Of a stretch of DNA of 64,000 bases, positions 25,012-64,000 are shown piece by piece (positions within the stretch are counted from its first letter, which is position 1; every line of letters starts with the position of its first letter). The stretch is from an uncultured Gammaproteobacteria bacterium (GTDB taxonomy: Bacteria; Patescibacteriota; Microgenomatia; JALYQM01): assembly GCA_964403585.1 (NCBI GenBank), contig CAYOFQ010000001.1, forward strand, positions 76,456 to 140,455. Direction: 5' to 3'. The position numbers and the translations under genes were made by a program. The notes beneath the pieces are model-generated. The model made no database searches, was not told the DNA's origin, and was given only the letters and a program-made list of their open reading frames with translations.

Positions 25012-25253
25012 GCCTTTCTTTTTTCTCTCACAACGCCATGCCTTAGTGCATGTCGCCGCCTGTGCCTTAGGGTACGGCGTTGTGAGTTTGACATATACCG
25101 TCGAGCAGAGAGAATTTGGCCGACGGGGGTCAGAGGAGTGCCGAAGGCACGAAGCGGTGCGCATGCATCATTTCGTTCACCTACAGCACTCCTCGTCAAC
25201 CACCCCCGCCGGCCTTTTCTCGTTTTAAAGGTAAAAATTAATATCCTATAATA

Positions 25254-25282
25254 TTGCCAAATAGTACAAAAAGTGATACAAT
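25254..25282 (+). promoter_or_regulatory. Sigma70-type promoter (island unit 2)
   Basis: ttgcca at 25254-25259, a 17-nt spacer, and tacaat at 25277-25282. It is preceded by atcctataatatt. Confidence 0.5.
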
Positions 25283-25606
25283 TCCCCCGCAAACGCGTCA
25301 ACGATCCAAGTTCCTTAAAATCGGGTAGTGGAGAAGCGTGAGGATTGGATTCTTCGGCTAAAGTCCGTGCTTAAGCATGGATAGAATCTGAAACAATCGA
25401 ATCTCTCTAAATTCTCTACTACCGCCAATAGTAATTTCCAATCCTGACTTCCATTATCCCTATCAGAAGATACAGATAGTTATTTATAGATATCTTTTGA
25501 TACGGATAATGGAATACAAAGGAAAACTAATGAAACAAGCTCAGGCACCGTAGACGGCCGTTTGTTTAGATCGCTGAAACTGAAAGAAAGCAAAGGAGAA
25601 ACAACT

Positions 25607-26365: not shown

Positions 26366-26593
26366 CGCTTCGGACACTCATGGTGTGATCACACCATCTG
26401 CCAGGAGTGGTTTTGGATCCTCCAAGATAAACCCGGTGTGGGGTTTGTCTTTAGTGGAAATTACTACGAACCGTACGCCTCTATGGCGGCATCATCAGCA
26501 AGCACGCCTTCAGCAATGAGGGAAAGTGAGTGTAAAAGATGTAGGTTCAGGCGGTAGTAGTTTTCAGTAAATAACCTATAATATTTATTTAAA

Positions 26594-26621
26594 GGTTGAT
26601 AATTACTTAAAATCTGGTATA
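26594..26621 (+). promoter_or_regulatory. Sigma70-type promoter with extended -10 (island unit 3)
   Basis: ttgata at 26594-26599, a 16-nt spacer ending in tgg, and tataat at 26616-26621. It is preceded by aaataacctataatatt. Confidence 0.5.
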
Positions 26622-27094
26622 ATTGCAGGGCAATATTTAGTCCTATAGTACTGTTACTACAAATGTGAATATGAACTATTCGTATTCAGACTTGTACTAA
26701 TAAGTACGGCACTTTAAAAACTGCATAGACAGTAGTGGGAAACGATGGGGATTGGACACGACCTCAGTCAACCATGCATAATTGTGTGCATTCGCGCCTG
26801 ATGAAACGGTCAAGTCTCCGTGTTTTTCCCACTACCCTTAATTGAAAAAGAAGTTCTTCCAAATAAACTATCCAATAATCCTATGAGGTGTTAAGCATAA
26901 ATTTAGCACTTGATAGGATTATTGTGATAGCAAAGCAAGGAGGATTATCTGATCACCTGCACGAGCCGCAAGGCGACGATGCAGAAAGCGGAGAGAGACC
27001 GCCCGAAGAACTGTGAGCGCAAGCTTACAGAGATGGTGGAAACCCATCACGAAACATACGTCGATCATCAGTTGTACAACTAGGAGAAGTAACA

Positions 27095-28171
27095 GTGAAA
27101 CGCTTACCAAACCTGCGGTACCTTTTGAGCATCGCGATGCTCGTGCTGGCCGCCCTCGCCGCCGCCCCGGCCGCCGCCGCGCCCGCCACCTGTGCCAAAC
27201 CGATCAACGGCAAGGGCGAAATTCACGGCAAGACCTATCAGTCGGACTGCATCAACGACACCACCGACCCGTTCGACCTAGCGGTCAGCGGCAATTTCGG
27301 CAAGGCCGATACTGTGTTGCTCCAGCTCCGCTCACCAAGCCAGCTGAGCTTCCAGCTCGACCCCAAAGACCCGGCAGCCATTGCCGTAGTGCCGAACGCC
27401 TGGTCGGATCCCATCATGTGGGACAAGTCGTATAACGACCACGCCATCCGCATCCTGCCGTACGGCGCCGTCGAGATTTCGGCGACGTCGACGCTGGCTC
27501 TGTGGTACATCACCCGCCAACCCGCTCAGGTCGTCGCACAGCCGACACCCACCAACACCGCCGGCCAGCTCGTGGCCCAGTCGCAGGTAGAGAACCAAAC
27601 CATCGATATCGCCGACGCGACCGCGCTGGCGAAGATCAAGCTGCACGATGGAGATGAGCTGGAGTGGAGCTTCGCAAAGTCGGCTACGCCGATCACGCTG
27701 ACGCTCTCGTCGGACAAGCCCTCGTACCCATTCTCGCTGATCCACGCCTCGAGCGGCACCGCCCAGTTTCAGTCGAAGATCTGGAGCAAGTCGAAAGGCC
27801 ACGAGATTCGCACGCAGGTGCCATCTGACCACGGCACTTTGAACAGCGGCCCTGCTGTGATCTCGATTTCCGTGGAGGCACCCGCCGGCACCACCGACCA
27901 GCTGAATCTGAAGATCACCCGCGCCGCGCAGCCCGCTACCTCCGCTGGCTCGAACGCCACGGTGCCAAACGGCGACTTGCCAAACACCGGCTGGGCCGAC
28001 TTGGGCGGCTTGATGCAGCTCGGCGACTCCGCTACCAACCAGACCACCGGCATGAACGCTTTCATCACCTTCCCCCTCAGCGCTACCCAGCGCTGGGTCG
28101 TCGGTGGCCTCGCCGCCTTGCTCGCCATCGGCCTCTTGGCCCGCCGCCGGCGCGCCTCCAAGGCACGCTAG
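27095..28171 (+). CDS. GC-rich island ORF c: secreted surface protein with LPNTG motif and C-terminal TM plus Arg-rich tail
   Basis: GTG start with AGGAG 8 nt upstream. Signal peptide. The C-terminal region has DLPNTG, then about 38 aa, then the hydrophobic stretch VVGGLAALLAIGLLA and RRRRASKAR. This is a sortase-signal-like layout with an atypically long gap. Confidence 0.6.
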   Translation: MKRLPNLRYLLSIAMLVLAALAAAPAAAAPATCAKPINGKGEIHGKTYQSDCINDTTDPFDLAVSGNFGKADTVLLQLRSPSQLSFQLDPKDPAAIAVVPNAWSDPIMWDKSYNDHAIRILPYGAVEISATSTLALWYITRQPAQVVAQPTPTNTAGQLVAQSQVENQTIDIADATALAKIKLHDGDELEWSFAKSATPITLTLSSDKPSYPFSLIHASSGTAQFQSKIWSKSKGHEIRTQVPSDHGTLNSGPAVISISVEAPAGTTDQLNLKITRAAQPATSAGSNATVPNGDLPNTGWADLGGLMQLGDSATNQTTGMNAFITFPLSATQRWVVGGLAALLAIGLLARRRRASKAR

Positions 28172-46906: not shown

Positions 46907-47506
46907 ATGTCCAATGTGCTCAAAGAACGTACTCTTATTGTCATAAAACCTGATGCTGTCAAACGTGCCCTGACAGGCACAATTATTAAGAAGTTTGAAG
47001 ACGTCGGATTGAAGCTGGTCGCCTGCAAAATGATCGTAGCCTCAAAGGAACAAGTTGAAGGGCACTATCCGATCAAAGATCCCAACTGGGTACGCATGCT
47101 CGGCGAAAAAACCTTAAAAACTTTTTCCGATCTGAAACTTGATGTAAAATCCAAATTAGGCACCGATGACCCAATGGAACTGGGACACGACGTTGTTAAC
47201 AAGCTGGTTCAGCATTGGTCCGAAGGACCGGTCATTGTTATGATCTGGGAAGGTCCACACGCCATTGAAGTTGCCCGTAAACTGCGGGGTGTCACGACAC
47301 CATTACAAGCCGAACCCGGATCCATTCTGGGTGATCTTTCTTTTGATTCACAACTGATCTCAAATACGTTAGGCAGAGCCATGAAGACGTTTGTCCATGC
47401 CTCCGGCGAAACCAGTGAAGCAGATCGGGAGATTAAGCACTGGTTTGGTGAAGAGGCCACGCTCTACGACTATTACAACCGCACCGATCACTCTGCCATG
47501 TTATAA
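46907..47506 (+). CDS. ndk: Nucleoside diphosphate kinase-like protein 1
   Basis: NDK fold with LIVIKPDAV and the active-site His in TFVHASGE. It is extended relative to the canonical form. Confidence 0.75.
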   Translation: MSNVLKERTLIVIKPDAVKRALTGTIIKKFEDVGLKLVACKMIVASKEQVEGHYPIKDPNWVRMLGEKTLKTFSDLKLDVKSKLGTDDPMELGHDVVNKLVQHWSEGPVIVMIWEGPHAIEVARKLRGVTTPLQAEPGSILGDLSFDSQLISNTLGRAMKTFVHASGETSEADREIKHWFGEEATLYDYYNRTDHSAML

Positions 47507-47537
47507 ACATATTTTACTAAAGAAAGGCCTCCAGGCT

Positions 47538-48161
47538 ATGGAAAAACCGCAAAAAGAAAAAACCTTAATTGTTATCAAGCACGACGGAGTAGCTCGTGGA
47601 ATCATTGGCGAAATTATCCATCGCTATGAAAAAGCCGGCTTAAAAGTTGTCGCCATGAAGATGTTGCACCCTACCAAGGAAATGGCCGATAAACACTACC
47701 AGGCAACCCCGGAAGACCTTGAGAGAATGGGCAATAATACCCTCCGTGATGCCGCCGAAAAAGGCGTCGATGTCAAAATCAAATTCGGTACAGATAATGC
47801 TCAGGAGATTGGCAAGTTTATCAAGAAGTGGTTAATCGACTATCTAAACGAAGGTCCGGTGATCGCTTTTGTACTGGAAGGATATAATGCAATTAAAATT
47901 GGCCGAAAAATAACCGGGGCAACACTTCCTTCTGAAGCACTCCCGGGAACTATCCGTGGTGATTTAACTCACGACAATCCTGAATTGGCCAACTTCTATG
48001 ACCGCCCGATGCGCAATTTGGTACACGCTTCAGGTAAGCCAAGCGAAGCTGAATTTGAAATCAACTTATGGTTCTCTTCCGACGAAGTCTTTTCTTATGA
48101 TCGTGTTGATGAAGAGGCCATGTTCGGTCCAATCAAACCTGTCCAGCCCAAGCAAAATTAA
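47538..48161 (+). CDS. Nucleoside diphosphate kinase-like protein 2 (tandem paralog)
   Basis: Start at the ATG at 47538 (MEKPQKEKTLIVIKHDGV...). Active-site His in NLVHASGK. The ORF-track start at 47391 would overlap the upstream gene. Confidence 0.75.
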   Translation: MEKPQKEKTLIVIKHDGVARGIIGEIIHRYEKAGLKVVAMKMLHPTKEMADKHYQATPEDLERMGNNTLRDAAEKGVDVKIKFGTDNAQEIGKFIKKWLIDYLNEGPVIAFVLEGYNAIKIGRKITGATLPSEALPGTIRGDLTHDNPELANFYDRPMRNLVHASGKPSEAEFEINLWFSSDEVFSYDRVDEEAMFGPIKPVQPKQN

Positions 48162-49341: not shown

Positions 49342-50253
49342 CTAATCAATGACCGGATTCAAAGGAGCGCCGCTCACTGATGATGAGCTAAAAGCAAACC
49401 AGGCTACCAGTGAAATTATTACTATCGCCAGGAACAACGACACAAATAGGAAGATTGGTTTAACCCAACCGGCGGATCTCTTTTTCTCCTGATTCCGTGG
49501 TACCGCTGCTTCCCGTGGACTATAGGTGTACGTTGAGGAGCGTGGCTCGTCGCTGACATATGCCGCATCGGTATCATATTCTTCTAATTCCACCTCATCA
49601 TTAGTGTCTTGCAAATCAAAAATGTGATTAAATTTTTCCTGCTCAATGGTTGAGAAGTTATCTGAAGCAACTTGTTTGATTGGACGCGGCTCTTCAGTTA
49701 CCGGTGTTGGCACAGCTGTTTGAACAGGCTCTGGAGCATGGTAAACCGGTTCTTCGACTTTCTTTTCAGTATGTGAAGAGTACTCCAAAGGGGTGTAAGC
49801 ATGTTCAATGTTCATGCTGGTATATGAAGAAGGCCGGATCTCAAGCTGAGAGTCTATCGAATGTTGCACTAATTCATCTTGGACACCCGGCTCAATAACC
49901 TGAATATATTCATCTACCGAGTCTTCTTCAGGTTCAGGTACGTGCACGGCTGTCTGTGCTGTAAGGTCACTTGGTGTAACTAAGGGTTCCGAAGGTAACT
50001 GCACTGCGGCTGGATCTATCGTTGTCGCTACTGGGGTTACCGGCGTGACTGAAGGTTTTTCATACGCGGGGGTTTGTATAACATCATCTAATTGCTTCTT
50101 AGTGTATCTTCGTATACCTGTCGGAGTGCGTTCTGGCACCAGGAAACCTTTTTTCTCCCATCGTCGTAGTGTAGATGCCGATACACGGAGATAGTCGGCT
50201 GCTTCGGTAATGCCTAGATATTCTGATTCGGAGGTTTGAGTAACGGTATCCAT
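49342..50253 (-). CDS. MerR/excisionase-type HTH protein with disordered linker and C-terminal TM anchor
   Basis: The N-terminal HTH is LGITEAADYLRVSASTLRRWEKKGFL, and the C-terminal TM is IFLFVSLFLAIVIISLVAWFAF. It is transcribed divergently from the giant gene. Confidence 0.6.
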   Translation of the reverse strand: MDTVTQTSESEYLGITEAADYLRVSASTLRRWEKKGFLVPERTPTGIRRYTKKQLDDVIQTPAYEKPSVTPVTPVATTIDPAAVQLPSEPLVTPSDLTAQTAVHVPEPEEDSVDEYIQVIEPGVQDELVQHSIDSQLEIRPSSYTSMNIEHAYTPLEYSSHTEKKVEEPVYHAPEPVQTAVPTPVTEEPRPIKQVASDNFSTIEQEKFNHIFDLQDTNDEVELEEYDTDAAYVSDEPRSSTYTYSPREAAVPRNQEKKRSAGWVKPIFLFVSLFLAIVIISLVAWFAFSSSSVSGAPLNPVID

Positions 50254-50718: not shown

Positions 50719-53700
50719 ATGGCTGCCCACCAAAAACATACATCTTCGTTTCGAGCTCAATTTCTCCAGGCTGAGCAAGAGGGGAGAACCATCGTAGATA
50801 TATGTAATGAGTTCAATATTTCCAGAAAAACCTATTACAAATGGAAAAACCTTTTTGAGAAGAATAATTCGGTTGAAAACCGCCAAAGAGGACGCAAAAA
50901 GACAGTCGACCCACGCATCGAAAAGATCGTTATCGACTTAATCAAATTAAATCCAGGCTGGAGTGTCGATAAGCTGTACCTCTTCTTAATGGAGAACAAT
51001 AACAATCAGCAGTTGGTCAGCCGTCACTGGATCCAATTGCTTCTCCAAAAAAATAAATTAAGCACACTTGAGAGCCGGATGAAATACAGTTATATGCATT
51101 CACCCCAACCGGCTCCTGCACAGGAAGTACCTGCAGTCGAAGTCATTCCCGCAATTGAACAGCAGGCCGTCTTGCACGCGGGAGACGCCTCTCCGCCGCG
51201 AATTACCCCGTCACTCAATCTCTCCTTTGATACCATCCCTTCTTTTGCTGCATCATTATTCAATAAACAGACCGTTACCTGGTTGTTTAAATCAGACAAA
51301 CTATATCTATCTGGTACAGTTATCGTTTCAATAATTAACGCCCTCCTCGTTTCCCGCATTATCGGAGCAGTCGCGGCCGCTGAAGAGATAAGTGGTAAGA
51401 TCGGCACGTTCTTATCGGCAATCGCACTATTCTGTGGAATATTCTTCTTCCTGTATTCAATCAAATACTATATAACCATCGCCGCTGTTATTCTGAAGAG
51501 CCGTTCAGATAAGAAGAAAAGTACTTCACCTGGTCTGGTCGAAAAAGTAACCGGGGAAATTCCATACATCGGACCGGTTATTCAGTCCCTATATAAAAGA
51601 GTTACACGCACTGAATTGGATCCGGTCAGCCTGCATAAAGAAGTGCAGAATACCGAACTGACCGAATATCCGTTCTTCAGTGTGCAGATACCATTATATA
51701 ACGAAAAGAAAGTCGCCAACCGCGTTACAGCGGCCGCCGCCGCCATGGACTATCCGAACTTCGAAGTCCTGGTCTGCGATGATTCCACCGATGAAACTAC
51801 CCAATTACTCTATGACAAGTGGAACGGCCACGATAAAGTTAAGATTCTCCACCGAACCATCCGCAGTGGTTTCAAGGGTGCAGCCTTAGACAATGCGCTT
51901 AAGTACATGGATGAGCGCACCGAGTACGTCGTAATCTTTGATGCCGACTTTGTCCCGTATCCGGACACCTTACAGTTATTCGCTAAATACTTCAAAGTAA
52001 TCGGCGATCATGAGCGTAATAACACTATCAATCCAAGCATGGCTGCTGCTAATCAGGTAGTCAAAGATATTCAGGCAGCCCAGTATCAGGGTAAAACAGT
52101 TGCTGTCCAGGGGTATCAGTGGCATGTACTCAATAAATCCGAGAACTGGATCACCCGTGCGGTTCGTTCCGAGTTTGCCGGCTCATATATTATTGAGCGC
52201 TCCGGTGGCCAGGTATTCGGGCTCTTAAAACAGATCGCCGGATCAGTCTACGCCATCAATGCCAAAGTCTTGCGTGAAGTAGGCTGGGGGACATCCATTA
52301 CTGAAGACTTCCAGTTAACCTTAAAGCTGTATCAGCAGGGCTACAAGGTTGCGTATACACCATATATACAGGCACCGTCAGAATGTGTATCCACACTCAA
52401 ACGCTTAATTCGTCAGCGCCAGCGCTGGGCAGAAGGGCATTCTTTCAATATTAAGAAACAACTGTTCGCCATGTTGAAATCACCCGGCATGACGCCGAAG
52501 GAAAAATGGGAAGCTATCTATTTAACTCCTTATTACTTACAGGCATTTATCTTCATTTTAGGTTCAATCTGCTGGATCATTGCTGAAACAGTTTTGCGCG
52601 TACAACTGCCATTCTGGACTGCTGCGCTCGGCTGGTCATTAGTCTTGACCAACCTCTTCTCGTTACCGCTCATGAACACGGTGGGACTCTTCCTTGAAGA
52701 AGGTGAGGAGCGCGACTATCTCGGCATATTCTCGTTCATCACGCTCTGCTACATTCTGGCCCCGTTCATTGGTTTCGCAGCAGTCAAAGGCTTTTTGGAA
52801 AAAGAGGAAGGCCCGTGGTTCCGAACGCCTAAATCCGGACATATCACCGATAAAGTTAACCGGACTAAGGAAGGCAAGCGGGAAACAATTATCAAATATC
52901 TGCCATGGATTAAACCGGCTATCAACGTTTTTAATTCAATCATTCCTGAAAGAGCCTCATCAGCAGTCTCTCCATACTTAGCGTATGAAACTGCCGGTAA
53001 CGATTTCAACAATCCAAGACAGGAGCGAAACCGGTCGATACTCAAGAAGCGTCTGACACATTTAAGTATCTTAGTGGTACTAAGTATTACAGTTTTAGCG
53101 AACATCGCCCAAACCACCGTGCCTCAATCCTTCGCGGTAGCCAGCACGCAATACGCCCGCACGACCGACGCCGATAACCTCACGAATACCGCCACAGCTG
53201 CCCGCAAGGTATTAAGCTCTACTATTGGTGCCAGCACAACATCCAGAACCCTCGACGCTACCAACACAACCTTCTATATCCTTACCGACAACATGAACAA
53301 AAACTGGACCAACGATACTGAGATCAACGACTCCAACACCACCGGAGAACGACGCAATGTTGCCATCAGCACTGATTCAAGCGGAAATACGGTCGCTGTA
53401 TGGGAAGACTCCCGAACCACTTTAACTACTGTACAAAACCGTTTCGATAACACCCAGGGAGCTATGGGCACCGGTAGATATGCTGCGCCGGTAATCCCAC
53501 TTCTTGACGGAAGAGTCCTGATAGCTGGTGGTCAAACCAGTGGCCCCACAAACTTATCCAGCGGCGAAATCTTTGATCCGATCACCGGGACATTCTCAGC
53601 AATCGCTACCAACATGGCCAATGCTCGTTATATGGGTAATGGCACCGTCTTGAATGATGGCCGCGCCTTTTTGGTAAGTGGTGGGAGTGGCACGACCGCA

Positions 53701-56700
53701 TATTCAACTACATCATTCTTTGACCCCAACACCAATAGTTTCTCAGCAGGACCTAACATGACCACCGCACGATACTCCGCACCAATCGAAAAATTAAATA
53801 ACGGTAAGATTCTCATCATGGGTGGCTGCACCGCAGTCGATGCTGTATCGGGTACTTGTTCAAGTGGCTATCTAAGCACAGCTGAATTATACGACCCGGC
53901 TACCAATACCTGGACGCTTACAGGAACTATGAAGGACATGCGCTCCTTCCATCAGTCAACATTACTACCGAATGGTGAAGTACTGGTTGTTGGAGGATCC
54001 AACGGTTCGGCACTATCCACGAGTGAAATATACAATACGGTAACCGGAACCTGGAGGGCGGGTGCAAACATGGTCACTGCTCGCTTATTCCCGGCCTTAG
54101 CGATGGTTACCGATACCAAAGCAATGGTTGTCGGTGGTATGACCACCAGTACGGATCTCTCCAGCACCGAGTTATATGATTATGTTGCCAACACCTGGAA
54201 CAGTAATGGAAATATTAACAGTGCTAATGTTGGTGGCTTCATGCGCAATGGTTTTATGAAATTAGCTAACGGTAAATTCCTGTTGGCTGGGTCATATAAA
54301 TCTACCGATGCCGGCAATCCAAGCAGCACGGCGCTCTTATACGATCCATCTATTAATACATGGTCAACCGTCAGCAATAACATATCCACACCTAAGTCGC
54401 TCTTCAATATGGCCTTATTGCCCAACGGCGATATATTACTTCCAGGCGGTGTAACAACAGGTACCAGCTCTACAACTAACTCCAATCTCTACACACCAGT
54501 CACCTATGATATCTACGCTCAGAAATACGATAAAACCGGAGCCAAGCTCTGGAACTCCGGCTCAGATATTCGCGTAAACTCCGACGATGGAAACCGCCTC
54601 TCAGCCTCCGGACCACCAAACTACAACCATTTATTCCCAACTGTCGGGATTGATGGTTCGGGTAACGCGGTCGTAGCATGGGCCGAGCAACGCGACGGAG
54701 TCTACTCACCAAGCATCTGGGCACAGAAACTGCAATCTTCAGACGGTAGCAAACTATGGCCAAGTGGTACAAAAAATGCGTTTGCCGCGACCGGCAACAA
54801 TCTTTCTCAGATCAGAGGAGGAGACAACACTTCGGCCACAACCATGGTCACTCCCGATGGAAGATTATTCGTTGTTGGCTCAGAATTAACCGGTGCTCCT
54901 CGTACTTCATCAGATATCTACAACCCAACCACCAATACCTTCTCGGCCGGACCTAATACTGCAGTACAGCGTTCCAACGCCACTACCGTTCCGCTCATGA
55001 ACGGGAAAATACTCGTGATTGGCGGTAACACTGGTACTCTGGCCAGTACCGCTGCTCAATTATATGATCCCGTCACCGGTACCTATGCCACCACCACCGG
55101 CGGTAACATTCATGTCCGCAGCGGACCTCAGGCAACTTTGCTTAAGAATGGCAAGGTATTCATCACCGGTACCAACCTCGATCCTGGTGCGGGTCAGTCT
55201 GTATCGGAAATTTATGACCCGGTCACTAATACCTTTGCACTTGGCCCGACTCTCAATTTTAACCGTCGTTTGCATGCACAGGCACTCTTACCAAATGGTA
55301 AAGTCATTATTATTGGAGGCATTGGCTCAGGTGCTGCACCAACGGTACCTGAAATTTACGATCCGGTCACAAATACCATAACTATATCAAACGCACGCAA
55401 TGCCAATAAAGCACGTTCAACTGCAGTAACGCTTAACAACGGAAAAATACTCCATATTGGATCAGCCAGCTCTCGCAGTATCGCTGAACTATATGATCCG
55501 TTAACTGACGACTTTACTGACGCCGGATGGACGAGCAAGTTCATTGACCGAGTTCACGATGCTGCAGTTGTTCTGCCAAATGGAAAGGTACTTCTAGCTG
55601 GTGGCACAGATAGTGCTGGTACAACAGATTTCTCTTCAACCGAAATCTACGATCCGGCGACCAATACCTGGTCTCCGGGACCGAACATGGCCGCTTCCAG
55701 AAGGCAGGCGAATTTGACCTTTATACCGAAATCACACAAAGTGCTGACGTACGGAGGCAGTACCACTTCGGTGACCTCATCCTCAGCGGAAGTCTATACT
55801 CCGGTAACCGACATGCAGGTCAGCCAGTTTGACTACAAAACTAATATCATGCTGCAGGGCGCCGTTGCCGGAAATATCACAGGCATCTTCTATAAGAAGC
55901 CGAAGATAACGATCAATAGCACCGGGGATGCCGTGATCGCCTGGCAGGAAAACAAAGACACTCGAACAGCCTTCCAGGGATTGAGTCATGCCTTTGATGC
56001 CAATGCGCGCTACGATTATGGCCGAAACCCCGCGGTAGTAGGTAACTGTCAAAACGGAACTGGTTGTGGAGCGATCCCGTCAATAATATCTCCACCGATA
56101 CAAATTGCCGCACAACGTATCTGTAACCAAGCGTCCTGTACCGATGCCGGCACCACTTCCGGCGAACGAACCTGGGGAGATACACAAAGTCTCTACAACC
56201 AGAATATGCCCGAAAATATTTACGTATCGAATGTACGTAACGCCCGCAATGTAAATGTTACCAGCGATGGCACCAGCACTGCTCTCATTTACGAGTCGGA
56301 TTCAGGTTTGTCACAAGATCTCTCCACAACCAGTAAGACCGATCCGAAAACCAGCAAAATATACATGCAAAAACTTGATGCCGATGGTAAAACTCTATGG
56401 ACGGGTGGTTGGACAGCTCCATCCGGCGGCATGGTCTCCAACCGCAGAACACAAACCACCACCTTGCTACCAAACGGCTCAGTTCTCCTGGCCGGAGGAC
56501 AAAATGGTTCAGCGCTATCTTCAGCAGAAGTACACAACCCTGAAACATTAACCAGCGTCGCTGCCACTAATAATATGCCGGTGGCTCGAATCAATCATTC
56601 CGCGACGTTACTTAATAACGGCAAAGTTCTCATCTCCGGAGGCGGTACCACCAGCTCTACCTCCAGCTCAACCGCGGATTTGTTTACGCCCAGCGGCACC

Positions 56701-59592
56701 AGCGGATCGTTCGCTGCTACGGTTGGGGCTATGAAGGTATCCCGAGCTGACCACTCTAGCGTACTATTACGTAACGGAAAGGTTTTGTTGGCCGGCGGAC
56801 GTAATGCTACTACGGCGACCTCCACTGCCGAACTGTATGACAGCACCACTGCGGTTGCCGCCAGCGCCTTCACATCTACCACCAATAACATGACTGCCGG
56901 TATTAGATACGGTCACCGCGCATCATTATTGCCAAATGGCAACGTTGTCGTTGCCGGTGGAACTAACGGAACCGGGCCATTATCCAGTGCCGAAATTTAT
57001 GATGACGCAAGCGGAACCTGGGGGAATGCCAGTATCATGGTTCAAAAACGCAGCCAGTTTAGTTTGACATTACTCCCTAATGGTAAGATCTTAGCAGTAG
57101 GCGGATGTATTGCTGGCAACTGTACTGCAGGGGCTGCTAACCGTACCTCAACTGCCGAACTCTTTGATCCATTAAAGAATGCCTGGACCAGTACCGGATC
57201 CTTAGTAATTGGTGTCCGCTCCGAACACAGCGCATCATTACTACCTTCAGGTAAGGTTGTTATCTATGGTGGAACAACCGACGGTACAACCTTCCTGTCC
57301 ACAACCGAGATCTATGATCCGGCAACGGGTACCTTTACCGCAGGGAGCACTGCACAGACAGGGCGACGCGATCACGACGCCATAGCGTTAACAAATGGTA
57401 AGGTCATGACCTTTGACGGATGGAACGGTACTACTACATTCTCAAGCTCCGAATTACTCTCGTTCGATCAGCAGATTTCCACCGGAAATGCAACCCAATC
57501 CCAGAATCCGGATGTTGTAAAAGACAGCTCCGGTAATCTGCAGGCCGTTTGGCAAGCGTGGAGGGCAGAAGGCCTTGGTTTGGGCAGCGGTGGTGGTTCT
57601 TGGAAAGTAATGACTCAGGAAATAAATAATCCAGCTTCAGGAGCAGTAACCAAACAATATCCTTCGGGAACAGTTAATAGTTGGGCAACTTCTGCAAATA
57701 TGTCTACAGCCCGCCGGGATCACGCCTCGGTGCTTCTGCCAAACGGCAAAATTATAGCTGGAGGAGGAATTGATCAATCATCCGGTCAGTTGAGCTCTAC
57801 GGAAATATATGATCCACAAACAGGAACATGGTCTGCTGGAGCTACTATGGTTAATCACCACGCCGGATTCGCCATGTTTACACTCAGTTCCGGAAAAGTT
57901 ATAGCTTTTGCCGGATACAATGCCGGCTCCAATAAGACTGACATTTATGACCCGGCAGCTAATACCTGGACCGCGCCCACATCAGCAAACCTGGTATTAG
58001 CACACTCAGAATATGCAGTGACAGCGTTGAACGACGGAAAGATTATGCTTGTCGGAGGACAGGACGGCAATAGTACTGCGATGCGTACAACCTCTGAACT
58101 ATTCGACCCAGCAACGCAAACCTGGACCAATACAACTGGCGGATTAACAACCGGTAGGCAATATTTTAGTGTGACCAAAACCAATGACGGAAAAGTGTAT
58201 GCCATTGGTGGGTGTACTAATGCCTCGACCTGTTCAGGCGCGAACATCGTTAACACCATTGAAGTATACAATCCAAGTACCTCTACCTGGTCATCGGTAT
58301 CGGCTACTTTAGGGACCGCACGATTCCGTCACAACGCTACACTCTTACCCAACGGTAAGATCTTGATTAATGGAGGTCAGAATAGTTCCGGTACCAACTT
58401 ATCTTCAAGTGAAATCTTCGATCCGAACTCCTTAACCATTACGACAGCCGCCACTGCACCGTTCTCAAGTTCCAGAGGGAATAATCCATTACCTTACAGT
58501 GCGACACTTTCAAATGGCAAGGTCTTCTTAACAAGAGGCATTGCATCAAACTCGACTGCAACGCAAACAATGTTATACGACCCGACGTCAGATACCTGGG
58601 CTTCAACAACCGGAGGCTTATCCAAAGGCTATTACGCTGCAAGTATTATTGGAATGAAAAACGGTAAAGTACTCATCATGGGCGGATCGGATAGCTCTAC
58701 AAACTACTACTCCAGTTCAGAATTATATACTCCGGAGTTGAGCGAACAACCCGTATCCAGTGACGATTCATCAGTCAACTATGATCAGACCGAGCCGAAG
58801 ATTGGTGCAGATACTGCCAATGCGTACAGCTACGTAGCCTGGAATGACGATCGGGTAACATCTCCATCAGACACCACAGGGGAAATGAATATCTACATGC
58901 AAAAACTTGATGGAGGGGGAAATCCGGTTTGGCCAAACGGACTTGGTGAAAACGGCTCATATAACGTTCGCGATACCCGCGTTGACACGACCCGCGGCAG
59001 CTTAAATACGTCTGTACAGACAGGTGTAGCCATCGCTAAGAGCGTCTTTACCAATACCGCAACTGATGTTCCAATCCAATTGGCCTGGACAGATACTCGT
59101 GACGGTACCCCAACATCCAGTATTTATGGTCAGTCATATAACACACGAAATTACAGTATGAGTTCAACTACGTGGACGGCGTACTATTACATTACCGGCA
59201 GTCCGACTAACGCCAACTCAATTAAAGTACAGGTAGGTACTACTGAATCCGATGGCGAGACAGTCAGCTACACGAGCGCTGAGTCTACGTACACAGGCGA
59301 CGGAACCAATGGGCAGAAGTCGACAGTCTTCTCGAACTTACCACCGACCAACGACACCTCACTAACACATCGTCGCTTAATTCTTAAGTTCACACGCAGT
59401 ACCGGAAGCATGACAATTTCATATAACGGCGGGGCCGGCGTAGCAGACACCAGATTAGAGGTAGGAACAATCGTGCCTGAGCGCTCGCTCATGCTGGTGC
59501 TCATTATCCCGGCTCTCCCGGCCCTTGCGCTCGGACATAAGAGATATCGCGTCCACCTCATCCGCCAGCACAATAGTAAGACTAAAGTATAG
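50719..59592 (+). CDS. Giant multidomain protein: IS3-like transposase HTH N-terminus + processive GT2 glycosyltransferase with TM helices + very large Kelch/beta-propeller repeat ectodomain
   Basis: N-terminal OrfA-like HTH (SSFRAQFLQ...ISRKTYYKWKNLFE) and HTH_21-like segment (DPRIEKIVIDLIKLNPGWSVDKLY). No DDE domain. GT2 motifs DDSTD, DAD, TED, QRQRW with flanking TM helices. More than 30 repeats of LLPNGKVL..GG...S.EIYDP.TNTW type, plus the interspersed motif IY.QK.D..G..LW. C-terminal TM plus HKRYR tail. Confidence 0.8.
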   Translation: MAAHQKHTSSFRAQFLQAEQEGRTIVDICNEFNISRKTYYKWKNLFEKNNSVENRQRGRKKTVDPRIEKIVIDLIKLNPGWSVDKLYLFLMENNNNQQLVSRHWIQLLLQKNKLSTLESRMKYSYMHSPQPAPAQEVPAVEVIPAIEQQAVLHAGDASPPRITPSLNLSFDTIPSFAASLFNKQTVTWLFKSDKLYLSGTVIVSIINALLVSRIIGAVAAAEEISGKIGTFLSAIALFCGIFFFLYSIKYYITIAAVILKSRSDKKKSTSPGLVEKVTGEIPYIGPVIQSLYKRVTRTELDPVSLHKEVQNTELTEYPFFSVQIPLYNEKKVANRVTAAAAAMDYPNFEVLVCDDSTDETTQLLYDKWNGHDKVKILHRTIRSGFKGAALDNALKYMDERTEYVVIFDADFVPYPDTLQLFAKYFKVIGDHERNNTINPSMAAANQVVKDIQAAQYQGKTVAVQGYQWHVLNKSENWITRAVRSEFAGSYIIERSGGQVFGLLKQIAGSVYAINAKVLREVGWGTSITEDFQLTLKLYQQGYKVAYTPYIQAPSECVSTLKRLIRQRQRWAEGHSFNIKKQLFAMLKSPGMTPKEKWEAIYLTPYYLQAFIFILGSICWIIAETVLRVQLPFWTAALGWSLVLTNLFSLPLMNTVGLFLEEGEERDYLGIFSFITLCYILAPFIGFAAVKGFLEKEEGPWFRTPKSGHITDKVNRTKEGKRETIIKYLPWIKPAINVFNSIIPERASSAVSPYLAYETAGNDFNNPRQERNRSILKKRLTHLSILVVLSITVLANIAQTTVPQSFAVASTQYARTTDADNLTNTATAARKVLSSTIGASTTSRTLDATNTTFYILTDNMNKNWTNDTEINDSNTTGERRNVAISTDSSGNTVAVWEDSRTTLTTVQNRFDNTQGAMGTGRYAAPVIPLLDGRVLIAGGQTSGPTNLSSGEIFDPITGTFSAIATNMANARYMGNGTVLNDGRAFLVSGGSGTTAYSTTSFFDPNTNSFSAGPNMTTARYSAPIEKLNNGKILIMGGCTAVDAVSGTCSSGYLSTAELYDPATNTWTLTGTMKDMRSFHQSTLLPNGEVLVVGGSNGSALSTSEIYNTVTGTWRAGANMVTARLFPALAMVTDTKAMVVGGMTTSTDLSSTELYDYVANTWNSNGNINSANVGGFMRNGFMKLANGKFLLAGSYKSTDAGNPSSTALLYDPSINTWSTVSNNISTPKSLFNMALLPNGDILLPGGVTTGTSSTTNSNLYTPVTYDIYAQKYDKTGAKLWNSGSDIRVNSDDGNRLSASGPPNYNHLFPTVGIDGSGNAVVAWAEQRDGVYSPSIWAQKLQSSDGSKLWPSGTKNAFAATGNNLSQIRGGDNTSATTMVTPDGRLFVVGSELTGAPRTSSDIYNPTTNTFSAGPNTAVQRSNATTVPLMNGKILVIGGNTGTLASTAAQLYDPVTGTYATTTGGNIHVRSGPQATLLKNGKVFITGTNLDPGAGQSVSEIYDPVTNTFALGPTLNFNRRLHAQALLPNGKVIIIGGIGSGAAPTVPEIYDPVTNTITISNARNANKARSTAVTLNNGKILHIGSASSRSIAELYDPLTDDFTDAGWTSKFIDRVHDAAVVLPNGKVLLAGGTDSAGTTDFSSTEIYDPATNTWSPGPNMAASRRQANLTFIPKSHKVLTYGGSTTSVTSSSAEVYTPVTDMQVSQFDYKTNIMLQGAVAGNITGIFYKKPKITINSTGDAVIAWQENKDTRTAFQGLSHAFDANARYDYGRNPAVVGNCQNGTGCGAIPSIISPPIQIAAQRICNQASCTDAGTTSGERTWGDTQSLYNQNMPENIYVSNVRNARNVNVTSDGTSTALIYESDSGLSQDLSTTSKTDPKTSKIYMQKLDADGKTLWTGGWTAPSGGMVSNRRTQTTTLLPNGSVLLAGGQNGSALSSAEVHNPETLTSVAATNNMPVARINHSATLLNNGKVLISGGGTTSSTSSSTADLFTPSGTSGSFAATVGAMKVSRADHSSVLLRNGKVLLAGGRNATTATSTAELYDSTTAVAASAFTSTTNNMTAGIRYGHRASLLPNGNVVVAGGTNGTGPLSSAEIYDDASGTWGNASIMVQKRSQFSLTLLPNGKILAVGGCIAGNCTAGAANRTSTAELFDPLKNAWTSTGSLVIGVRSEHSASLLPSGKVVIYGGTTDGTTFLSTTEIYDPATGTFTAGSTAQTGRRDHDAIALTNGKVMTFDGWNGTTTFSSSELLSFDQQISTGNATQSQNPDVVKDSSGNLQAVWQAWRAEGLGLGSGGGSWKVMTQEINNPASGAVTKQYPSGTVNSWATSANMSTARRDHASVLLPNGKIIAGGGIDQSSGQLSSTEIYDPQTGTWSAGATMVNHHAGFAMFTLSSGKVIAFAGYNAGSNKTDIYDPAANTWTAPTSANLVLAHSEYAVTALNDGKIMLVGGQDGNSTAMRTTSELFDPATQTWTNTTGGLTTGRQYFSVTKTNDGKVYAIGGCTNASTCSGANIVNTIEVYNPSTSTWSSVSATLGTARFRHNATLLPNGKILINGGQNSSGTNLSSSEIFDPNSLTITTAATAPFSSSRGNNPLPYSATLSNGKVFLTRGIASNSTATQTMLYDPTSDTWASTTGGLSKGYYAASIIGMKNGKVLIMGGSDSSTNYYSSSELYTPELSEQPVSSDDSSVNYDQTEPKIGADTANAYSYVAWNDDRVTSPSDTTGEMNIYMQKLDGGGNPVWPNGLGENGSYNVRDTRVDTTRGSLNTSVQTGVAIAKSVFTNTATDVPIQLAWTDTRDGTPTSSIYGQSYNTRNYSMSSTTWTAYYYITGSPTNANSIKVQVGTTESDGETVSYTSAESTYTGDGTNGQKSTVFSNLPPTNDTSLTHRRLILKFTRSTGSMTISYNGGAGVADTRLEVGTIVPERSLMLVLIIPALPALALGHKRYRVHLIRQHNSKTKV

Positions 59593-59765: not shown

Positions 59766-59806
59766 GTAATTTTCACACTTTATAGCAATAATAGTAGGTG
59801 TGAAAA
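59766..59806. repeat. 11-bp perfect inverted repeat between the giant paralogs
   Basis: aattttcacac...gtgtgaaaatt with a 19-nt loop. Confidence 0.5.
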
Positions 59807-59955
59807 TTATCACAACACAAGACCTGTAGCATTATTAAAAAGAATATCAAGACTCTACTAATATGAGAGAGTACCCAAGCATAAACCAGAAATAAAATAG
59901 AAAGTTTTACTCATACTATTGACATAATATGCTAATTATCCAACAGTAGATAAAG

Positions 59956-62900
59956 ATGAAAAAAGCAGTCAGATATTCCATCGGGTTTAAACAAAAAGTG
60001 CTGCAGGATCCTGAACAGAATATCGTCAAGTTGTGCCATAAATATAAAATCGACCGGACTACATATTATGAATGGCAGAAAAAATTATCCGGAAAGGTAA
60101 GTAAGACGGCTGATCAGGTAGTTTCCAAACCATCTAAACCGATTCTCAGAATCCAGGCCAGAAAGCATAGTATTGAATTTAGACATAAACTTCTTGAACT
60201 GGTCAGCGAAGGTCATTCTATTTCGGCTGTCTGCCGGGCATTAAAGATCAATCGGAGTACCTACTATAAATGGCATCACCGTTTGAATGGAAATCTGGGT
60301 TTAAGCAATAACAAACCGGGCAGTCGTGAAAGAATCGATCAACGAGTCATTAAGATAATCTTTGATATAGTAAGGGTATATCCACAGTGGAGCATTGATC
60401 AGATATATCAGTATATTCACCAGGAATCACCTGAACAGTTAATAAGCAGAGGTGCTATTCAAAAAATCTTAAAAAGAAATAACTTAAGCACAGTTAACAG
60501 ACGCCTCGCCTTTAGTTACCTGCACACACCTTCTGTCACCACAACAGTACCGGATATAACCACTACTGAAAATATCGTTCCGGTTGATCAGCAAATTATT
60601 CGATCGCGTGGAGACCCTTCACCACCTGTCTATAGTGCATCAAACCTATTCAACAAGCGCCATCAATCTGGTTCATTATATATAGCTGCAATCATCGTTA
60701 GCGCTATAGCCAATGCATATCTCCTCAGTAAGGTAATCCTTTCTATTAGTCAGACATCTGGTATATTGAATAAAATCGGCATGGGGCTTGCCTCAATCGC
60801 TCTGTTCTGTGGAATATTCTTCTTCCTGTACTCACTTAAATATTACATCACTATCGCAACTGTCATTTATAAATCTCAGAATAAAGTACGGAATAAAGGA
60901 ATACTGTCGACACTCCTCAATAAATTCTCTTCATCTCGTCAAAATATTGACCCTGTTACATTACAAAAACAGGTCATGGCAGCCGAGCTAACGGAGTATC
61001 CGTTCTTCAGCGTGCAGATACCGTTATATAACGAGAAGAAAGTCGCCAACCGCGTTACAGCGGCCGCCGCCGCCATGGACTATCCGAACTTCGAAGTCCT
61101 GGTCTGCGATGATTCCACCGATGAAACGACTCAATTACTTTATGGTCGCTGGTCAGGTAGTGATAAAGTCAAAATTCTCCATCGCGTTAATCGTACAGGA
61201 TTCAAGGGTGCCGCTTTGGATAACGCACTTAAGTATATGGATCCACGCACCGAGTACGTCGTAATCTTTGATGCCGATTTCGTACCATATCCGGACACCT
61301 TACAGCTATTTGCCAAATACTTTAAAGTAATCGCAGAAAATGAGCGTAATAATACTATCAATCCTGGCATGGCTGCTGCTAACCAGGTAGTCAAAGATAT
61401 CCAGGCAGCGCAGTATCAAGGTAAAACAGTTGCTGTCCAAGGGTACCAGTGGCATGTACTCAATAAATCCGAGAACTGGATCACTCGTGCGGTTCGCTCC
61501 GAATTCGCCGGCTCATATATTATTGAGCGCTCCGGTGGCCAGGTATTTGGACTCTTAAAACAGATCGCCGGATCGGTGTACGCGATCAATGCCAAAGTCT
61601 TGCGTGAGGTTGGGTGGGGAACATCCATTACTGAAGACTTCCAGTTAACCTTAAAGTTGTACCAGCAGGGCTACAAGGTTGCGTATACCCCATATATACA
61701 AGCCCCGTCAGAATGTGTATCCACACTCAAGCGATTAATCCGCCAGCGCCAACGCTGGGCAGAAGGACATTCATATAACATCAAAAGGCAAATCATTGCA
61801 CTTATAACCTCACCAAACATGTCTCTCCGCGAAAAATGGGAAGCAATCTATCTCACACCTTACTATCTGCAGGCCTTCATATTTATTCTTGGCACTTTCT
61901 GCTGGGTTATTGCCGAAACCGTATTGCAGGTAAGACTCCCATTCTGGGGCTCTGCACTCGGCTGGTCATTAGTCTTGACCAACCTCTTCTCGTTACCGCT
62001 CATGAACACGGTGGGACTCTTCCTGGAAGAAGGAGAGGAGCGGGATTATCTTGGATTATTCTCTTTCATAACCTTATGTTATGTCCTTGCTCCGTTCATT
62101 GGCTTCGCCGCGCTTAAGGGTTTTCTCGAGAAAGAAGAAGGCCCATGGTTCCGAACGCCTAAATCCGGACATATTACCGATAAAATCAATCGCACAGACA
62201 ATAATTCATCACGTATTCTCAAGTATCTCCCGTGGATTAAACCGGCGATGGACACATTCAACAGACGTATAACTGCAAAAATCTCTCCGGCCGTATCACC
62301 GTATCTCAACTATGCTACTGCCGGCAATAGTTTCTCAAATTTCAGTGTTCCAAACAAGCGCAGCCGGATCATGAAACGGGGAATGCATACCATCATAGTC
62401 CTCGCCTTTATGGTTACTATCGCAGCTAACATCGCCCAGACTACTATTCCACAGGCATTTGCCAATCCGGACACATTCTACATTCGAACAACCACTGCCG
62501 ACAACCTGGATGATACAACGAATAACAAAAGACTGCAGGGAAGTGTCTCAATCGGATCATCAACCACAACACAAACCCTCTCTGCTACCAATCCAACATT
62601 ATACATAATTACAGATAATTTCAATAAACGCTGGACCAACGATATTCAAGTCCCTGATACTTCAAACCAGGAGCGTAGAAATGTGCAGATAGCGACAGAT
62701 TCAGATGGATCAACAGTTGCAGTCTGGGAAGATCTGCGCAACAACAGCAGCACTCATCAAAATCGCTTTGACACGACCGGAGCCATGTCTACAGGACGCT
62801 ATGCTGCGCCGGTAGTGCCATTATTGGATGGAAGAGTAGTGATAGCAGGTGGACAAACAAGTGGGCCGTCTAACCTTTCTGGTGGCGAAATTTTTGACCC

Positions 62901-64000
62901 AGTAAGTCAAACATTTACAACCGTTTCCAATAATATGGTTAACACACGATACATGGGAGTAGGTTCACTATTGGATGACGGCCGCGCTATGTTTATCAGT
63001 GGGGCTAATGGTGCTACAGCATATTCAACCACCACTATTTTTGATCCGAATACCAATACTTTTTCCGCGGGACCAAACATGTCAGCAGCAAAATATTCCG
63101 CTCCAGTTGAAAAGTTATATAACGGCAAACTTTTGGTAATGGGAGGATGTACAGCGGTAGACGCTGCCTCAGGTGCTTGCTCAAGTGGCTATCTAAGTTC
63201 GGTGGAGCTATTTGACCCTGCCACGAGTACCTGGACGTCAACCGGAAATATGTCCGTTGCGCGCTCCTTCGCGCAATCAACACTATTACCAAATGGTGAA
63301 GTGTTAATTGCAGGCGGTTCGAACGGATCAACATACCATTCATCAACAGAAATATACAATCCCGTTACAGGAACATGGAGAAAAGTACCGGGGATGGTAC
63401 AAGGTAGATACTTAGCCGCAATGGCGCAAATTTCCGACACTGAAGTAATGGTTGTTGGGGGTGCAGATGGTACTTCAGATTTTTCCTCAACTGAAATCTT
63501 CGATATTGTTGCAAATACATGGAGGAGCAATGGCAATATTAATAGCACCAACAGAGGAGGATTTTTAGCAGATTCATTTATTAAATTGCCAAACGGTAAA
63601 ATATTACTTGCTGGTGCATATAGAACACAAGACGCGTCCAATCCAGTCAGTACAGCCTTACTCTATGATCCAATTGCCAATACCTGGGCTAGTACAGGAA
63701 ATAATCTAACACTCAGCAACGCGCTCTTTAATATGGCACTGCTCCCCGATGGAAAAGTAGTAATTCCAGGAGGAATGACTACCGGCACTTCTGCGACTAC
63801 CGCTTCGCATATTTATACGCCCAACAGCTATGATATTTACGCACAAAAAATAGACAGAAATGGAAATAAGCTTTGGGGTAGTGGAACAGATATTCGGGTC
63901 AACTCGGATGATGGGAATAGATACTCCTCGGGAGGACCGTTATATAATCACCTCAATCCGCATGTGGCGCTAGATTCATCCGGAAATGCCATCGTAGCCT
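59956..64000 (+). CDS. Second giant HTH-GT2-Kelch paralog (5' partial; runs off the window end)
   Basis: Begins MKKAVRYSIGFKQKVL...IDRTTYYEWQKKL. This paralog has two OrfA-like HTH repeats. The GT2 region is near-identical in nucleotide sequence to 51650-52900. Kelch-like repeats continue to position 64000 with no stop, so the gene is absent from the ORF track. Confidence 0.75.
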   Translation, partial: MKKAVRYSIGFKQKVLQDPEQNIVKLCHKYKIDRTTYYEWQKKLSGKVSKTADQVVSKPSKPILRIQARKHSIEFRHKLLELVSEGHSISAVCRALKINRSTYYKWHHRLNGNLGLSNNKPGSRERIDQRVIKIIFDIVRVYPQWSIDQIYQYIHQESPEQLISRGAIQKILKRNNLSTVNRRLAFSYLHTPSVTTTVPDITTTENIVPVDQQIIRSRGDPSPPVYSASNLFNKRHQSGSLYIAAIIVSAIANAYLLSKVILSISQTSGILNKIGMGLASIALFCGIFFFLYSLKYYITIATVIYKSQNKVRNKGILSTLLNKFSSSRQNIDPVTLQKQVMAAELTEYPFFSVQIPLYNEKKVANRVTAAAAAMDYPNFEVLVCDDSTDETTQLLYGRWSGSDKVKILHRVNRTGFKGAALDNALKYMDPRTEYVVIFDADFVPYPDTLQLFAKYFKVIAENERNNTINPGMAAANQVVKDIQAAQYQGKTVAVQGYQWHVLNKSENWITRAVRSEFAGSYIIERSGGQVFGLLKQIAGSVYAINAKVLREVGWGTSITEDFQLTLKLYQQGYKVAYTPYIQAPSECVSTLKRLIRQRQRWAEGHSYNIKRQIIALITSPNMSLREKWEAIYLTPYYLQAFIFILGTFCWVIAETVLQVRLPFWGSALGWSLVLTNLFSLPLMNTVGLFLEEGEERDYLGLFSFITLCYVLAPFIGFAALKGFLEKEEGPWFRTPKSGHITDKINRTDNNSSRILKYLPWIKPAMDTFNRRITAKISPAVSPYLNYATAGNSFSNFSVPNKRSRIMKRGMHTIIVLAFMVTIAANIAQTTIPQAFANPDTFYIRTTTADNLDDTTNNKRLQGSVSIGSSTTTQTLSATNPTLYIITDNFNKRWTNDIQVPDTSNQERRNVQIATDSDGSTVAVWEDLRNNSSTHQNRFDTTGAMSTGRYAAPVVPLLDGRVVIAGGQTSGPSNLSGGEIFDPVSQTFTTVSNNMVNTRYMGVGSLLDDGRAMFISGANGATAYSTTTIFDPNTNTFSAGPNMSAAKYSAPVEKLYNGKLLVMGGCTAVDAASGACSSGYLSSVELFDPATSTWTSTGNMSVARSFAQSTLLPNGEVLIAGGSNGSTYHSSTEIYNPVTGTWRKVPGMVQGRYLAAMAQISDTEVMVVGGADGTSDFSSTEIFDIVANTWRSNGNINSTNRGGFLADSFIKLPNGKILLAGAYRTQDASNPVSTALLYDPIANTWASTGNNLTLSNALFNMALLPDGKVVIPGGMTTGTSATTASHIYTPNSYDIYAQKIDRNGNKLWGSGTDIRVNSDDGNRYSSGGPLYNHLNPHVALDSSGNAIVA

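Follow-up and report, generated by a model that had tools for sequence, protein, structure and literature searches.

In bacterial cellulose synthesis, the BcsB subunit carries a C-terminal transmembrane (TM) anchor, and ToxR and CadC are known as membrane-tethered one-component DNA-binding proteins with a winged-helix head of the OmpR type and a single TM helix. In Streptomyces, the family 2 glycosyltransferase (GT2) CslA and GlxA, a Kelch-propeller radical copper oxidase, form a functional synthase complex (PMC11022532). Exosortase systems are associated with exopolysaccharide (EPS) loci, and according to the exosortase model the substrate is cleaved near its motif, the helix stays in the membrane and the new C-terminus is conjugated to an unidentified moiety (PMC7468200). 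Here we describe a gene that resembles each of these systems in one of its parts. It occupies positions 50719..59592 (plus strand) of a 64,000-nucleotide stretch of contig CAYOFQ010000001.1 (the window, i.e., the whole stretch of DNA that was analysed) as a continuous open reading frame (ORF) without an internal stop, and its 2957-aa product is identical to a protein on record (P0241) from a 1.57-Mb NCBI contig. The product comprises a helix-turn-helix (HTH) head, a GT2 synthase, a Kelch ectodomain and a tail of the VPE-CTERM kind. This is the order that a sequence-only reading of the locus had proposed (an HTH without a catalytic domain, TM helices, a processive GT2, further TM helices, a Kelch ectodomain, and a C-terminal helix with a basic tail), and it was borne out in all its parts. 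The protein is probably a synthase of a surface glycan whose chain continues into an adhesin or binding ectodomain of its own that a sortase processes, and it has a putative cytoplasmic DNA-binding head.

The catalytic part is a GT2 domain of the GT-A fold (aa 318-560, 51670..52398, plus strand) recognised by the Pfam families Glyco_tranf_2_3, Glycos_transf_2 and Glyco_trans_2_3, with Pfam GT2 matches at E 1e-17 to 1e-19. The motifs pointed out in the sequence-only reading are all present and intact, namely DDSTD (aa 354-358), DAD (408-410), TED (528-530) and QRQRW (566-570), and in an alignment of 71 relatives nearly all residues of the GT2 motifs are either invariant or conserved to at least 90%. 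The mean identity of the core to its relatives is 62%, and it reaches 95% for the tandem paralog of the same locus. The domain is preceded by a TM hairpin (aa 195-266, 51301..51516, plus strand), visible in hydropathy and as helices 195-220 and 224-266 of an AlphaFold2 (AF2) model; it bears the family motif G..FFFLYS.KYY, with G229, G240, F243, Y246, S247, Y250 and Y251 invariant in the same alignment. The AF2 model places after the catalytic domain (52399..52854, plus strand) the QRQRW interface helix, TM helices 607-625 and 632-659, a hydrophobic interface-type helix (667-693) and a gating-loop-like WFRTPK (700-705). Here Q566, R567, R569, W570, W700, R702, T703, P704 and K705 are invariant, and the gating loop shows 80% conservation across relatives. 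One more TM helix, at aa 773-800 by both hydropathy and AF2 (53035..53118, plus strand), leads to the ectodomain.

The AF2 model of aa 1-804, built from the family alignment, has a mean pLDDT of 75, with the HTH helices and the GT-A domain modelled confidently. Its best Foldseek matches are BcsA of E. coli and Rhodobacter (E 2e-14 to 8.5e-11; the PDB structures 4HG6 and 4P00 are among them), hyaluronan synthases (about 1e-10) and the archaeal PcManGT (TM-score 0.74, normalised to target length), and the PDB sequence matches of the synthase are BcsA and chondroitin synthase. Our protein and these enzymes, together with PgaC, have in common the D, DxD, TED and QxxRW motifs of the GT-A domain as well as an interface helix, a TM channel and a gating-type loop that ends in T-x-K. 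The identity to the solved synthases is only 13-18%, and Pfam matches no PilZ domain, which a BcsA ortholog would carry at its C-terminus. The scores against TIGR03030 (64 vs. 699 bits) and PRK11498 (53 vs. 992) lie far below those of a BcsA ortholog; NCBIfam also holds glycosyltransferase models associated with XrtP, and the query matches NF053846 weakly. By its motifs and its modelled fold, the protein is a processive membrane GT2 of the cellulose/hyaluronan-synthase type. As such, it would polymerise a nucleotide-sugar and bring the glycan to the surface of the cell through the TM channel that it forms itself. The structure of BcsA serves as the basis for a likely topology in which the hairpin is followed by the glycosyltransferase domain on the cytoplasmic side, the QRQRW interface helix, two TM helices, the interface helix, the cytoplasmic WFRTPK loop and TM helix 773-800. 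Such a BcsA-like order of TM segments would leave the Kelch array outside the cell and bring the very C-terminus, HKRYR, back inside.

The C-terminus carries a tripartite sorting-type signal read from the sequence (aa 2917-2944, 59467..59550, plus strand), which consists of TIVPE, the 17-residue helix RSLMLVLIIPALPALALG and HKRYR, and 13 more residues follow to the end of the protein. The pattern of [TIV][IV]PE, a helix with prolines (P..P) and a basic stretch was found by regular expression in 44 of the 59 complete C-termini of the family in the loci compared, and the regular expression for [TIV][IV]PE, helix and basic residues fits 79 of 120 listed homologs. The prolines of the helix are conserved (PFIP, IPALP or similar) and are followed by a cluster of Lys/Arg; one subclass of tails adds a cytoplasmic extension ending in LDELPV. 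The signal is all but restricted to this family: a scan of all 692 ORFs in the loci gave 54 occurrences of the pattern, and 48 of them belong to family members, 5 to probable family fragments, and 1 is likely due to chance. In the AF2 model of P0004, a full-length short homolog, the C-terminal helix has a pLDDT of only about 60-75. The sequence-only reading had called the VPE, the helix and HKRYR loosely PEP-CTERM-like, and at the family level this proved apt, as the tail is conserved and relatives encode an exosortase-family protein. Judging from sequence, this segment probably acts as a sorting signal that is specific to the family and similar to PEP-CTERM. It resembles the tails recognised by exosortases (PEP-CTERM) and archaeosortases (PGF-CTERM) in having a P-E motif, a TM helix and a basic cluster in this order. 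It differs in its motif, with [TIV][IV]PE in place of PEP, and in matching no NCBIfam signal model; filing the tail as PEP-CTERM proper was rejected for lack of a match to any NCBIfam CTERM model. CPR bacteria (Candidate Phyla Radiation) have no outer membrane, unlike the hosts of PEP-CTERM proteins. As a separate observation, another conserved motif resembling VPE(V) is found immediately outside the TM helix in front of the ectodomain (query aa ~800-806, TTVPQSF), where it mirrors the C-terminal VPE.

The comparison of the neighbourhoods covered 76 sequences (75 related loci and the window) and revealed a candidate partner for this tail. A polytopic protein of ~190 aa is usually encoded directly downstream of the family gene on the same strand, often at a spacing of -31 to +71 nt; clustering by BLAST gave 49 members in 44 loci, and a profile hidden Markov model (HMM) found this exosortase-family gene in 46 of the 76 sources, the window itself being negative. 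All 32 partners scanned match the exosortase/archaeosortase signature TIGR04178 (a representative reaches 26 bits, the cut-off being 23), none of the partners reaches the cut-off of a named exosortase subfamily, and the JGI annotation calls them exosortase/archaeosortase family proteins. Their invariant residues include a Cys in WNCxGWQS (C89), an Arg in NxxR (R133) and a His in FHDY (H153). The arrangement is thus reminiscent of exosortase systems, where a polytopic Cys/Arg/His partner of the sortase family is likewise found nearby and is tied to glycosyltransferases and surface polysaccharide. In contrast to them, the sortase homolog of the relatives is small (~190 aa) and below all named subfamily cut-offs, the pairing is adjacent and approximately one-to-one, and the substrate is the polytopic synthase itself. 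The N-terminal signal peptide of exosortase substrates is absent, the N-terminus being an HTH followed by the polytopic synthase. Taken together, these features suggest that the small exosortase-like protein may recognise the tail, cleave it near the VPE and re-anchor the C-terminus of the ectodomain to a lipid or glycan.

The same tail may be read in another way. In BcsB and the fused AcsAB, too, a partner domain outside the cell is held by a TM anchor at the C-terminus, so that the helix might be a BcsB-like tail anchor packing on the TM bundle of the synthase, as in BcsA-BcsB or AcsAB, with the ectodomain guiding the nascent glycan and the small downstream membrane protein being a structural subunit or unrelated. 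The succession of a GT2, an extracellular part and one TM helix at the C-terminus indeed mirrors BcsA-BcsB, which is represented among the top fold matches (4HG6, 4P00); the conserved prolines of the helix (PFIP, IPALP) could reflect helix packing, and within 3 kb of 24 of the 59 family genes there is no sortase gene. Against this stand the catalytic Cys, Arg and His of exosortases, which are invariant in the downstream protein, and the layout of the tail, where the conserved extracytoplasmic PE, the helix and the basic cluster exactly reproduce the tripartite arrangement of exosortase/archaeosortase substrates (PMC7468200). Compared with BcsA-BcsB, the protein has an HTH head, a Kelch ectodomain in place of BcsB and the VPE sorting-type tail. 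We consider a mere tail anchor unlikely and favour a tail processed by the exosortase-like partner.

At the other end of the protein, the HTH head (aa 9-127, 50743..51099, plus strand; predicted to be cytoplasmic) is bipartite according to Pfam, NCBIfam and AF2. Within aa 1-68, the Pfam families HTH_28 (E 9.5e-9), HTH_Tnp_1 (1.6e-7), HTH_29 and HTH_23 score above their cut-offs, and HTH_32 matches below its cut-off at aa 38-102. Residues 12-124 align with the N-terminal ~115 positions of NCBIfam transposase models, best with IS481 (3.7e-12; model positions 2-113), then with IS630 (4e-9; positions 2-120) and IS3 (3e-6), all of these scores being far under the full-length cut-offs (e.g., 46 vs. 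224 bits). The AF2 model shows helices 9-20, 25-32, 36-49, 65-77, 83-93, 102-111 and 117-127 with a pLDDT of 85-95. No rve/DDE catalytic domain (rve/DDE_3) was found by Pfam or NCBIfam scans of the protein, and these domain searches agree with the sequence-only reading in placing a transposase-type HTH without DDE at the N-terminus. Its more precise assignment to IS3 OrfA/OrfB and HTH_21 stood only as regards the transposase type: the head is nearer to IS481/IS630 than to IS3, and HTH_21 was not detected. Thus, as far as its sequence goes, the head corresponds to the two-part DNA-binding module that transposases of the IS481/IS630/IS3 type carry, and to nothing more. It shares with their N-terminal regions the ~115-aa bipartite HTH (HTH_28, HTH_Tnp_1, HTH_29, HTH_32); it differs from these transposases in the absence of DDE/rve and in that its nearest relatives are CPR HTH-GT2 proteins and HTH arrays. 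A phmmer search of the head against 1.84 billion representatives returned as the closest 150 matches other fusion proteins, fragments and HTH arrays, and no DDE/rve was among the 25 commonest Pfam families of 49 head matches that did not look like fusions. Because the closest relatives of the head are family proteins, fragments and HTH arrays, transposase descent is suggested at the superfamily level only. A PDB sequence search with the head gave nothing at E<=1. Of terminal inverted repeats, only short AT-rich repeats were seen upstream, and none flanks the gene; promoter-like sites upstream of both paralogs were in no excess over the shuffled expectation.

Comparison across the family suggests what the head may do. 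Most members have two bipartite HTH modules, i.e., a duplicated head; in P0113 and P0119 a MerR-type HTH replaces the head on the same GT2 core, and the Chloroflexi relatives are headless. Since the head is conserved, duplicated, exchangeable for MerR and accompanied by a membrane-tethered MerR-like neighbour, generic DNA binding at the membrane appears plausible, in which case the head would bring about autoregulation or tethering of the locus. A cytoplasmic HTH covalently joined to a membrane protein with an extracytoplasmic domain is reminiscent of ToxR and CadC; unlike in those proteins, a whole polysaccharide synthase lies here between the putative DNA binder and the ectodomain. The head is connected to the first TM helix by a Pro/Ala-rich linker, predicted to be disordered (aa 128-194, 51100..51300, plus strand; pLDDT <50 at aa 132-174), with a mean identity of 13% across relatives.

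Such a linker also invites the idea that the HTH is a signalling output, so that ectodomain engagement or envelope stress would trigger regulated intramembrane proteolysis and free a soluble transcription factor. The disordered stretch of 60 aa between the HTH and the first TM helix would suit this, as would the upstream MerR-like protein, which shares the plan of HTH, long linker and TM anchor, and the interchangeability of HTH types at the head position. However, the conserved neighbourhood contains no evident protease site or dedicated protease, and the GT2 core between head and ectodomain would make any signal transmission indirect. We hold release of the head by proteolysis to be distinctly improbable and prefer a head that would bind DNA at the membrane.

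The ectodomain is dominated by Kelch repeats (Pfam Kelch_1, E 9e-125, 16 stretches). The "dozens" of repeats estimated in the sequence-only reading amount to 28 blades (27 by regular expression and one, at about aa 2513, added by eye), which fall into four groups of 7. According to Pfam Kelch families and the blade count, they make up propeller 1 (aa ~925-1262, 53491..54504), propeller 2 (aa ~1365-1700, 54811..55818), propeller 3 (aa ~1900-2250, 56416..57468) and propeller 4 (aa ~2320-2680, 57676..58758), all on the plus strand. The motif Y.QKLD..G..LW occurs 4-5 times, and the inter-propeller segments with the motifs D.SGN.VVAW and IY.QK.D..G..LW match a delta-60 repeat model below its cut-off. 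Such delta-60-like blades, single or paired, were noticed at aa ~880-900, 1262-1350, 1725-1745, 1845-1895, 2262-2300 and 2700-2810 (window ~53356-59150), and they may form one hub propeller into which the four Kelch propellers are inserted. The closest solved sequences to the Kelch part are canonical propellers of the KLHL/KEAP1 type and designed (SAKe) propellers, not galactose oxidase or GlxA. The extracellular array of ~2100 aa would thus serve as a surface binding or adhesin module beside the glycan exit, exchangeable in paralogs for LamG or other domains; we favour binding or adhesion over GlxA-like oxidation, because the propellers resemble the protein-interaction Kelch domains of KLHL, KEAP1 and SAKe.

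The opposite view, that the array is catalytic like the Streptomyces radical copper oxidase GlxA and would oxidise or otherwise modify the nascent glycan, draws on an NCBIfam GlxA match (E 1e-50, nine stretches), on Pfam Glyoxal_oxid_N matches, and on the CslA-GlxA functional complex, which makes a GT2 and an extracellular Kelch a known pair (PMC11022532). Our protein indeed resembles this system in combining a cellulose-synthase-like GT2 with a membrane-tethered extracellular Kelch propeller (PMC11022532). Yet CslA-GlxA consists of two proteins with a single propeller and a copper-radical site, whereas here one polypeptide bears four canonical Kelch propellers. The oxidase class was judged by model score and nearest PDB sequences, and the GlxA model NF052501 gives 172 bits against a cut-off of 800, i.e., below the family level, the nearest PDB sequences being of the KLHL/KEAP1 type or designed Kelch and not galactose oxidase/GlxA. 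Moreover, LamG or unrecognisable domains replace Kelch in paralogs, which better suits a binding module than an obligatory enzyme. An oxidase is therefore very unlikely, and a binding or adhesin ectodomain is retained.

The architecture, which had been described from sequence as not known, turned out not to be unique. A search of relatives for HTH-GT2 fusions found the same fusion in over 1000 proteins of the databases. A genome often encodes several of them, and lengths above 2000 aa are frequent. The N-terminal 794 aa have at least 1095 homologous proteins at E<1e-5, nearly all of which combine HTH_Tnp_1/28/29/32 with GT2. They come mostly from Patescibacteria/Microgenomates (Woese-, Gottesman-, Curtiss-, Davies- and Chisholmbacteria) and typically measure 1000-1400 aa, and the JGI label on relatives reads "cellulose synthase-like glycosyltransferase/transposase". 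The 75 loci and the window hold 108 family genes, often in tandem or several per genome; many encode more than 2000 aa, the longest 4458 aa. HTH-GT2-Kelch versions recur in L001, L054, P0242 and P0243. The ectodomains vary, being Kelch in the window, L001, L054 and P0242/3, Laminin_G_3 in L001, L023 and L069, and not recognisable in L021; short forms of the family have a ~200-aa beta-sandwich ectodomain, as in the AF2 layout of P0004 with two HTH modules, the GT2, the ~200-aa beta-sandwich and a terminal helix. The window gene is thus an ordinary family member, not a singular invention. We also noticed that the records of many contigs with this Patescibacteria-type family bear the label 'uncultured Gammaproteobacteria', 'Bathyarchaeia' or 'Nevskiaceae', probably a placeholder or mis-binned taxonomy.

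The closest copy stands next to the gene itself. A stop-free scan revealed a tandem paralog (paralog 2; 59956..64000, plus strand), truncated by the window end, with an extra N-terminal HTH, the GT2 and Kelch repeats. Its GT2 core is 95% identical to that of the first gene in protein and 84% in DNA, and the overall identity is 65%; judging from these figures, the second copy is a true paralog and not a collapsed repeat. In the source genome, paralog 2 has 2301 aa (P0245, identical over the 1348 visible aa) and lacks the tail of VPE, helix and basic residues, which could mean that this copy is truncated or decaying. An ortholog of 3189 aa lies in the related locus L001, with HTH, GT2, LamG, a Kelch array and a VVPE-helix-RRRR tail; it is 59% identical over aa 1-804 and 44% over the ectodomain, and the two loci share the upstream order of ArgRS, metallophosphoesterase, M16 peptidase, NDK, trigger factor and a divergent MerR-like gene. 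Two more orthologs, of 3422 aa (P0242) and 3134 aa (P0243), carry tails that are nearly identical. The continuity of the frame across 51000-51300 is supported by the paralog at 59956, the ortholog in L001 and the more than 1000 single-ORF homologs. That the fusion is an artefact of assembly or gene calling, e.g., a transposase remnant reading into a separate GT2 and then a separate Kelch gene, has a negligible probability: a few relatives are indeed split into adjacent ORFs (L017, L061, L074), but the single-ORF fusion is also present in a tandem paralog only 84% identical in DNA, in the syntenic ortholog of L001 and in more than 1000 independent proteins, and the junction residues of HTH and GT2 are conserved. 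The 363-nt spacer between the paralogs contains a perfect 12-nt inverted repeat (59767-59809, TAATTTTCACAC-N19-GTGTGAAAATTA), which could be an operator or a hairpin.

Several points weigh against our interpretation of the protein as a synthase with a sortase-processed ectodomain and a DNA-binding head. As regards processing, the NCBIfam CTERM sorting models (PEP-CTERM, PGF-CTERM, VPEID-CTERM, etc.) gave no match at E<=10 to the tails of the query and three relatives, and in 13 of the 59 complete family genes both the signal detected by regular expression and a nearby sortase gene are missing. A profile HMM search in six frames found no exosortase-family gene in the 64 kb of the window, the end of which falls within paralog 2, or in the 22-kb sequence of L001. 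Besides, we know of no precedent for a polytopic membrane enzyme that serves as a sortase substrate without a signal peptide, and cleavage at the tail would not release the ectodomain. As regards the product, all NCBIfam equivalog scores are far under the cut-offs. As regards DNA binding, the HTH is the least conserved folded part, with ~25% identity against 62% for the GT2, and a search upstream of both paralogs revealed no convincing operator or repeat, only short AT-rich repeats and one 12-nt inverted repeat. With these points taken into account, we still regard the interpretation as probable.

The surroundings of the gene were compared as well. Directly upstream in the window, a divergent gene (49342..50253, minus strand) encodes a protein of 303 aa with an HTH of the MerR/HTH_17 type (Pfam MerR, MerR_1, HTH_17), an acidic/Pro-rich linker and a C-terminal TM helix. 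This membrane-anchored MerR-like neighbour has 27 members in 25 sources (24 related loci and the window), and it usually lies directly upstream on the opposite strand. A polytopic membrane protein of ~460 aa without a Pfam match is present in 60 copies in 37 loci, and other recurrent neighbours are GT4 enzymes, PMT_2/TMEM260-like GT-C enzymes and fusions of MFS, spermidine synthase and TPR (L001 19573-21729 and related loci L005-L071); in L001, a TMEM260-like GT-C is encoded directly downstream of the ortholog. The neighbourhood is that of an envelope-glycan locus. Elsewhere in the window, positions 24000-28000 form an island with a GC content of 0.57 (about 0.44 for the genome) that encodes Pro/Ala/Thr-rich low-complexity secreted or membrane proteins; at the end of the ORF at 27095-28171 (plus strand), LPNTG is followed by a hydrophobic helix and RRRR, a classic LPXTG signal for sortase A. 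Positions 46907-48161 (plus strand) hold two NDK-like ORFs of 199 and 256 aa that are adjacent and overlap, and L001 likewise has a tandem NDK pair. An Rfam scan of the window found a tRNA-Ala only.

Every part of this protein is of an already known kind, and the co-occurrence of GT2 enzymes and exosortases is known at the locus level; the family is common in databases, where it stands uninterpreted. In the searchable literature, we found no description of an HTH-synthase fusion, of an exosortase-type system in CPR bacteria, or of a sorting-type tail on a synthase polypeptide. A far-reaching version of our interpretation, which we put forward as a speculation with little probability, would see here an undescribed CPR-wide surface system in which one polypeptide has three roles. 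It would be the glycan synthase; it would present its own exchangeable adhesin or receptor ectodomain, whose C-terminus would be cleaved and ligated by the mini-exosortase, possibly to the extruded glycan or to a lipid; and it would be coupled to DNA via the transposase-derived HTH head. If so, the surface polymer, host contact and the nucleoid of these episymbionts would be linked directly, either mechanically or through regulation.

The CPR/Patescibacteria are mostly uncultured episymbionts, and their cell-surface biology is poorly known. The Microgenomates among them hold expanded sets of synthase-ectodomain fusions, several per genome, many of them longer than 2000 aa and with swappable surface domains. 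If processing and DNA binding hold, this would be the first exosortase-type system where the polysaccharide synthase itself is the substrate, as well as a new kind of membrane-tethered DNA-binding protein. In that case, the host-attachment and matrix machinery of CPR bacteria would have in this family a candidate amenable to study.

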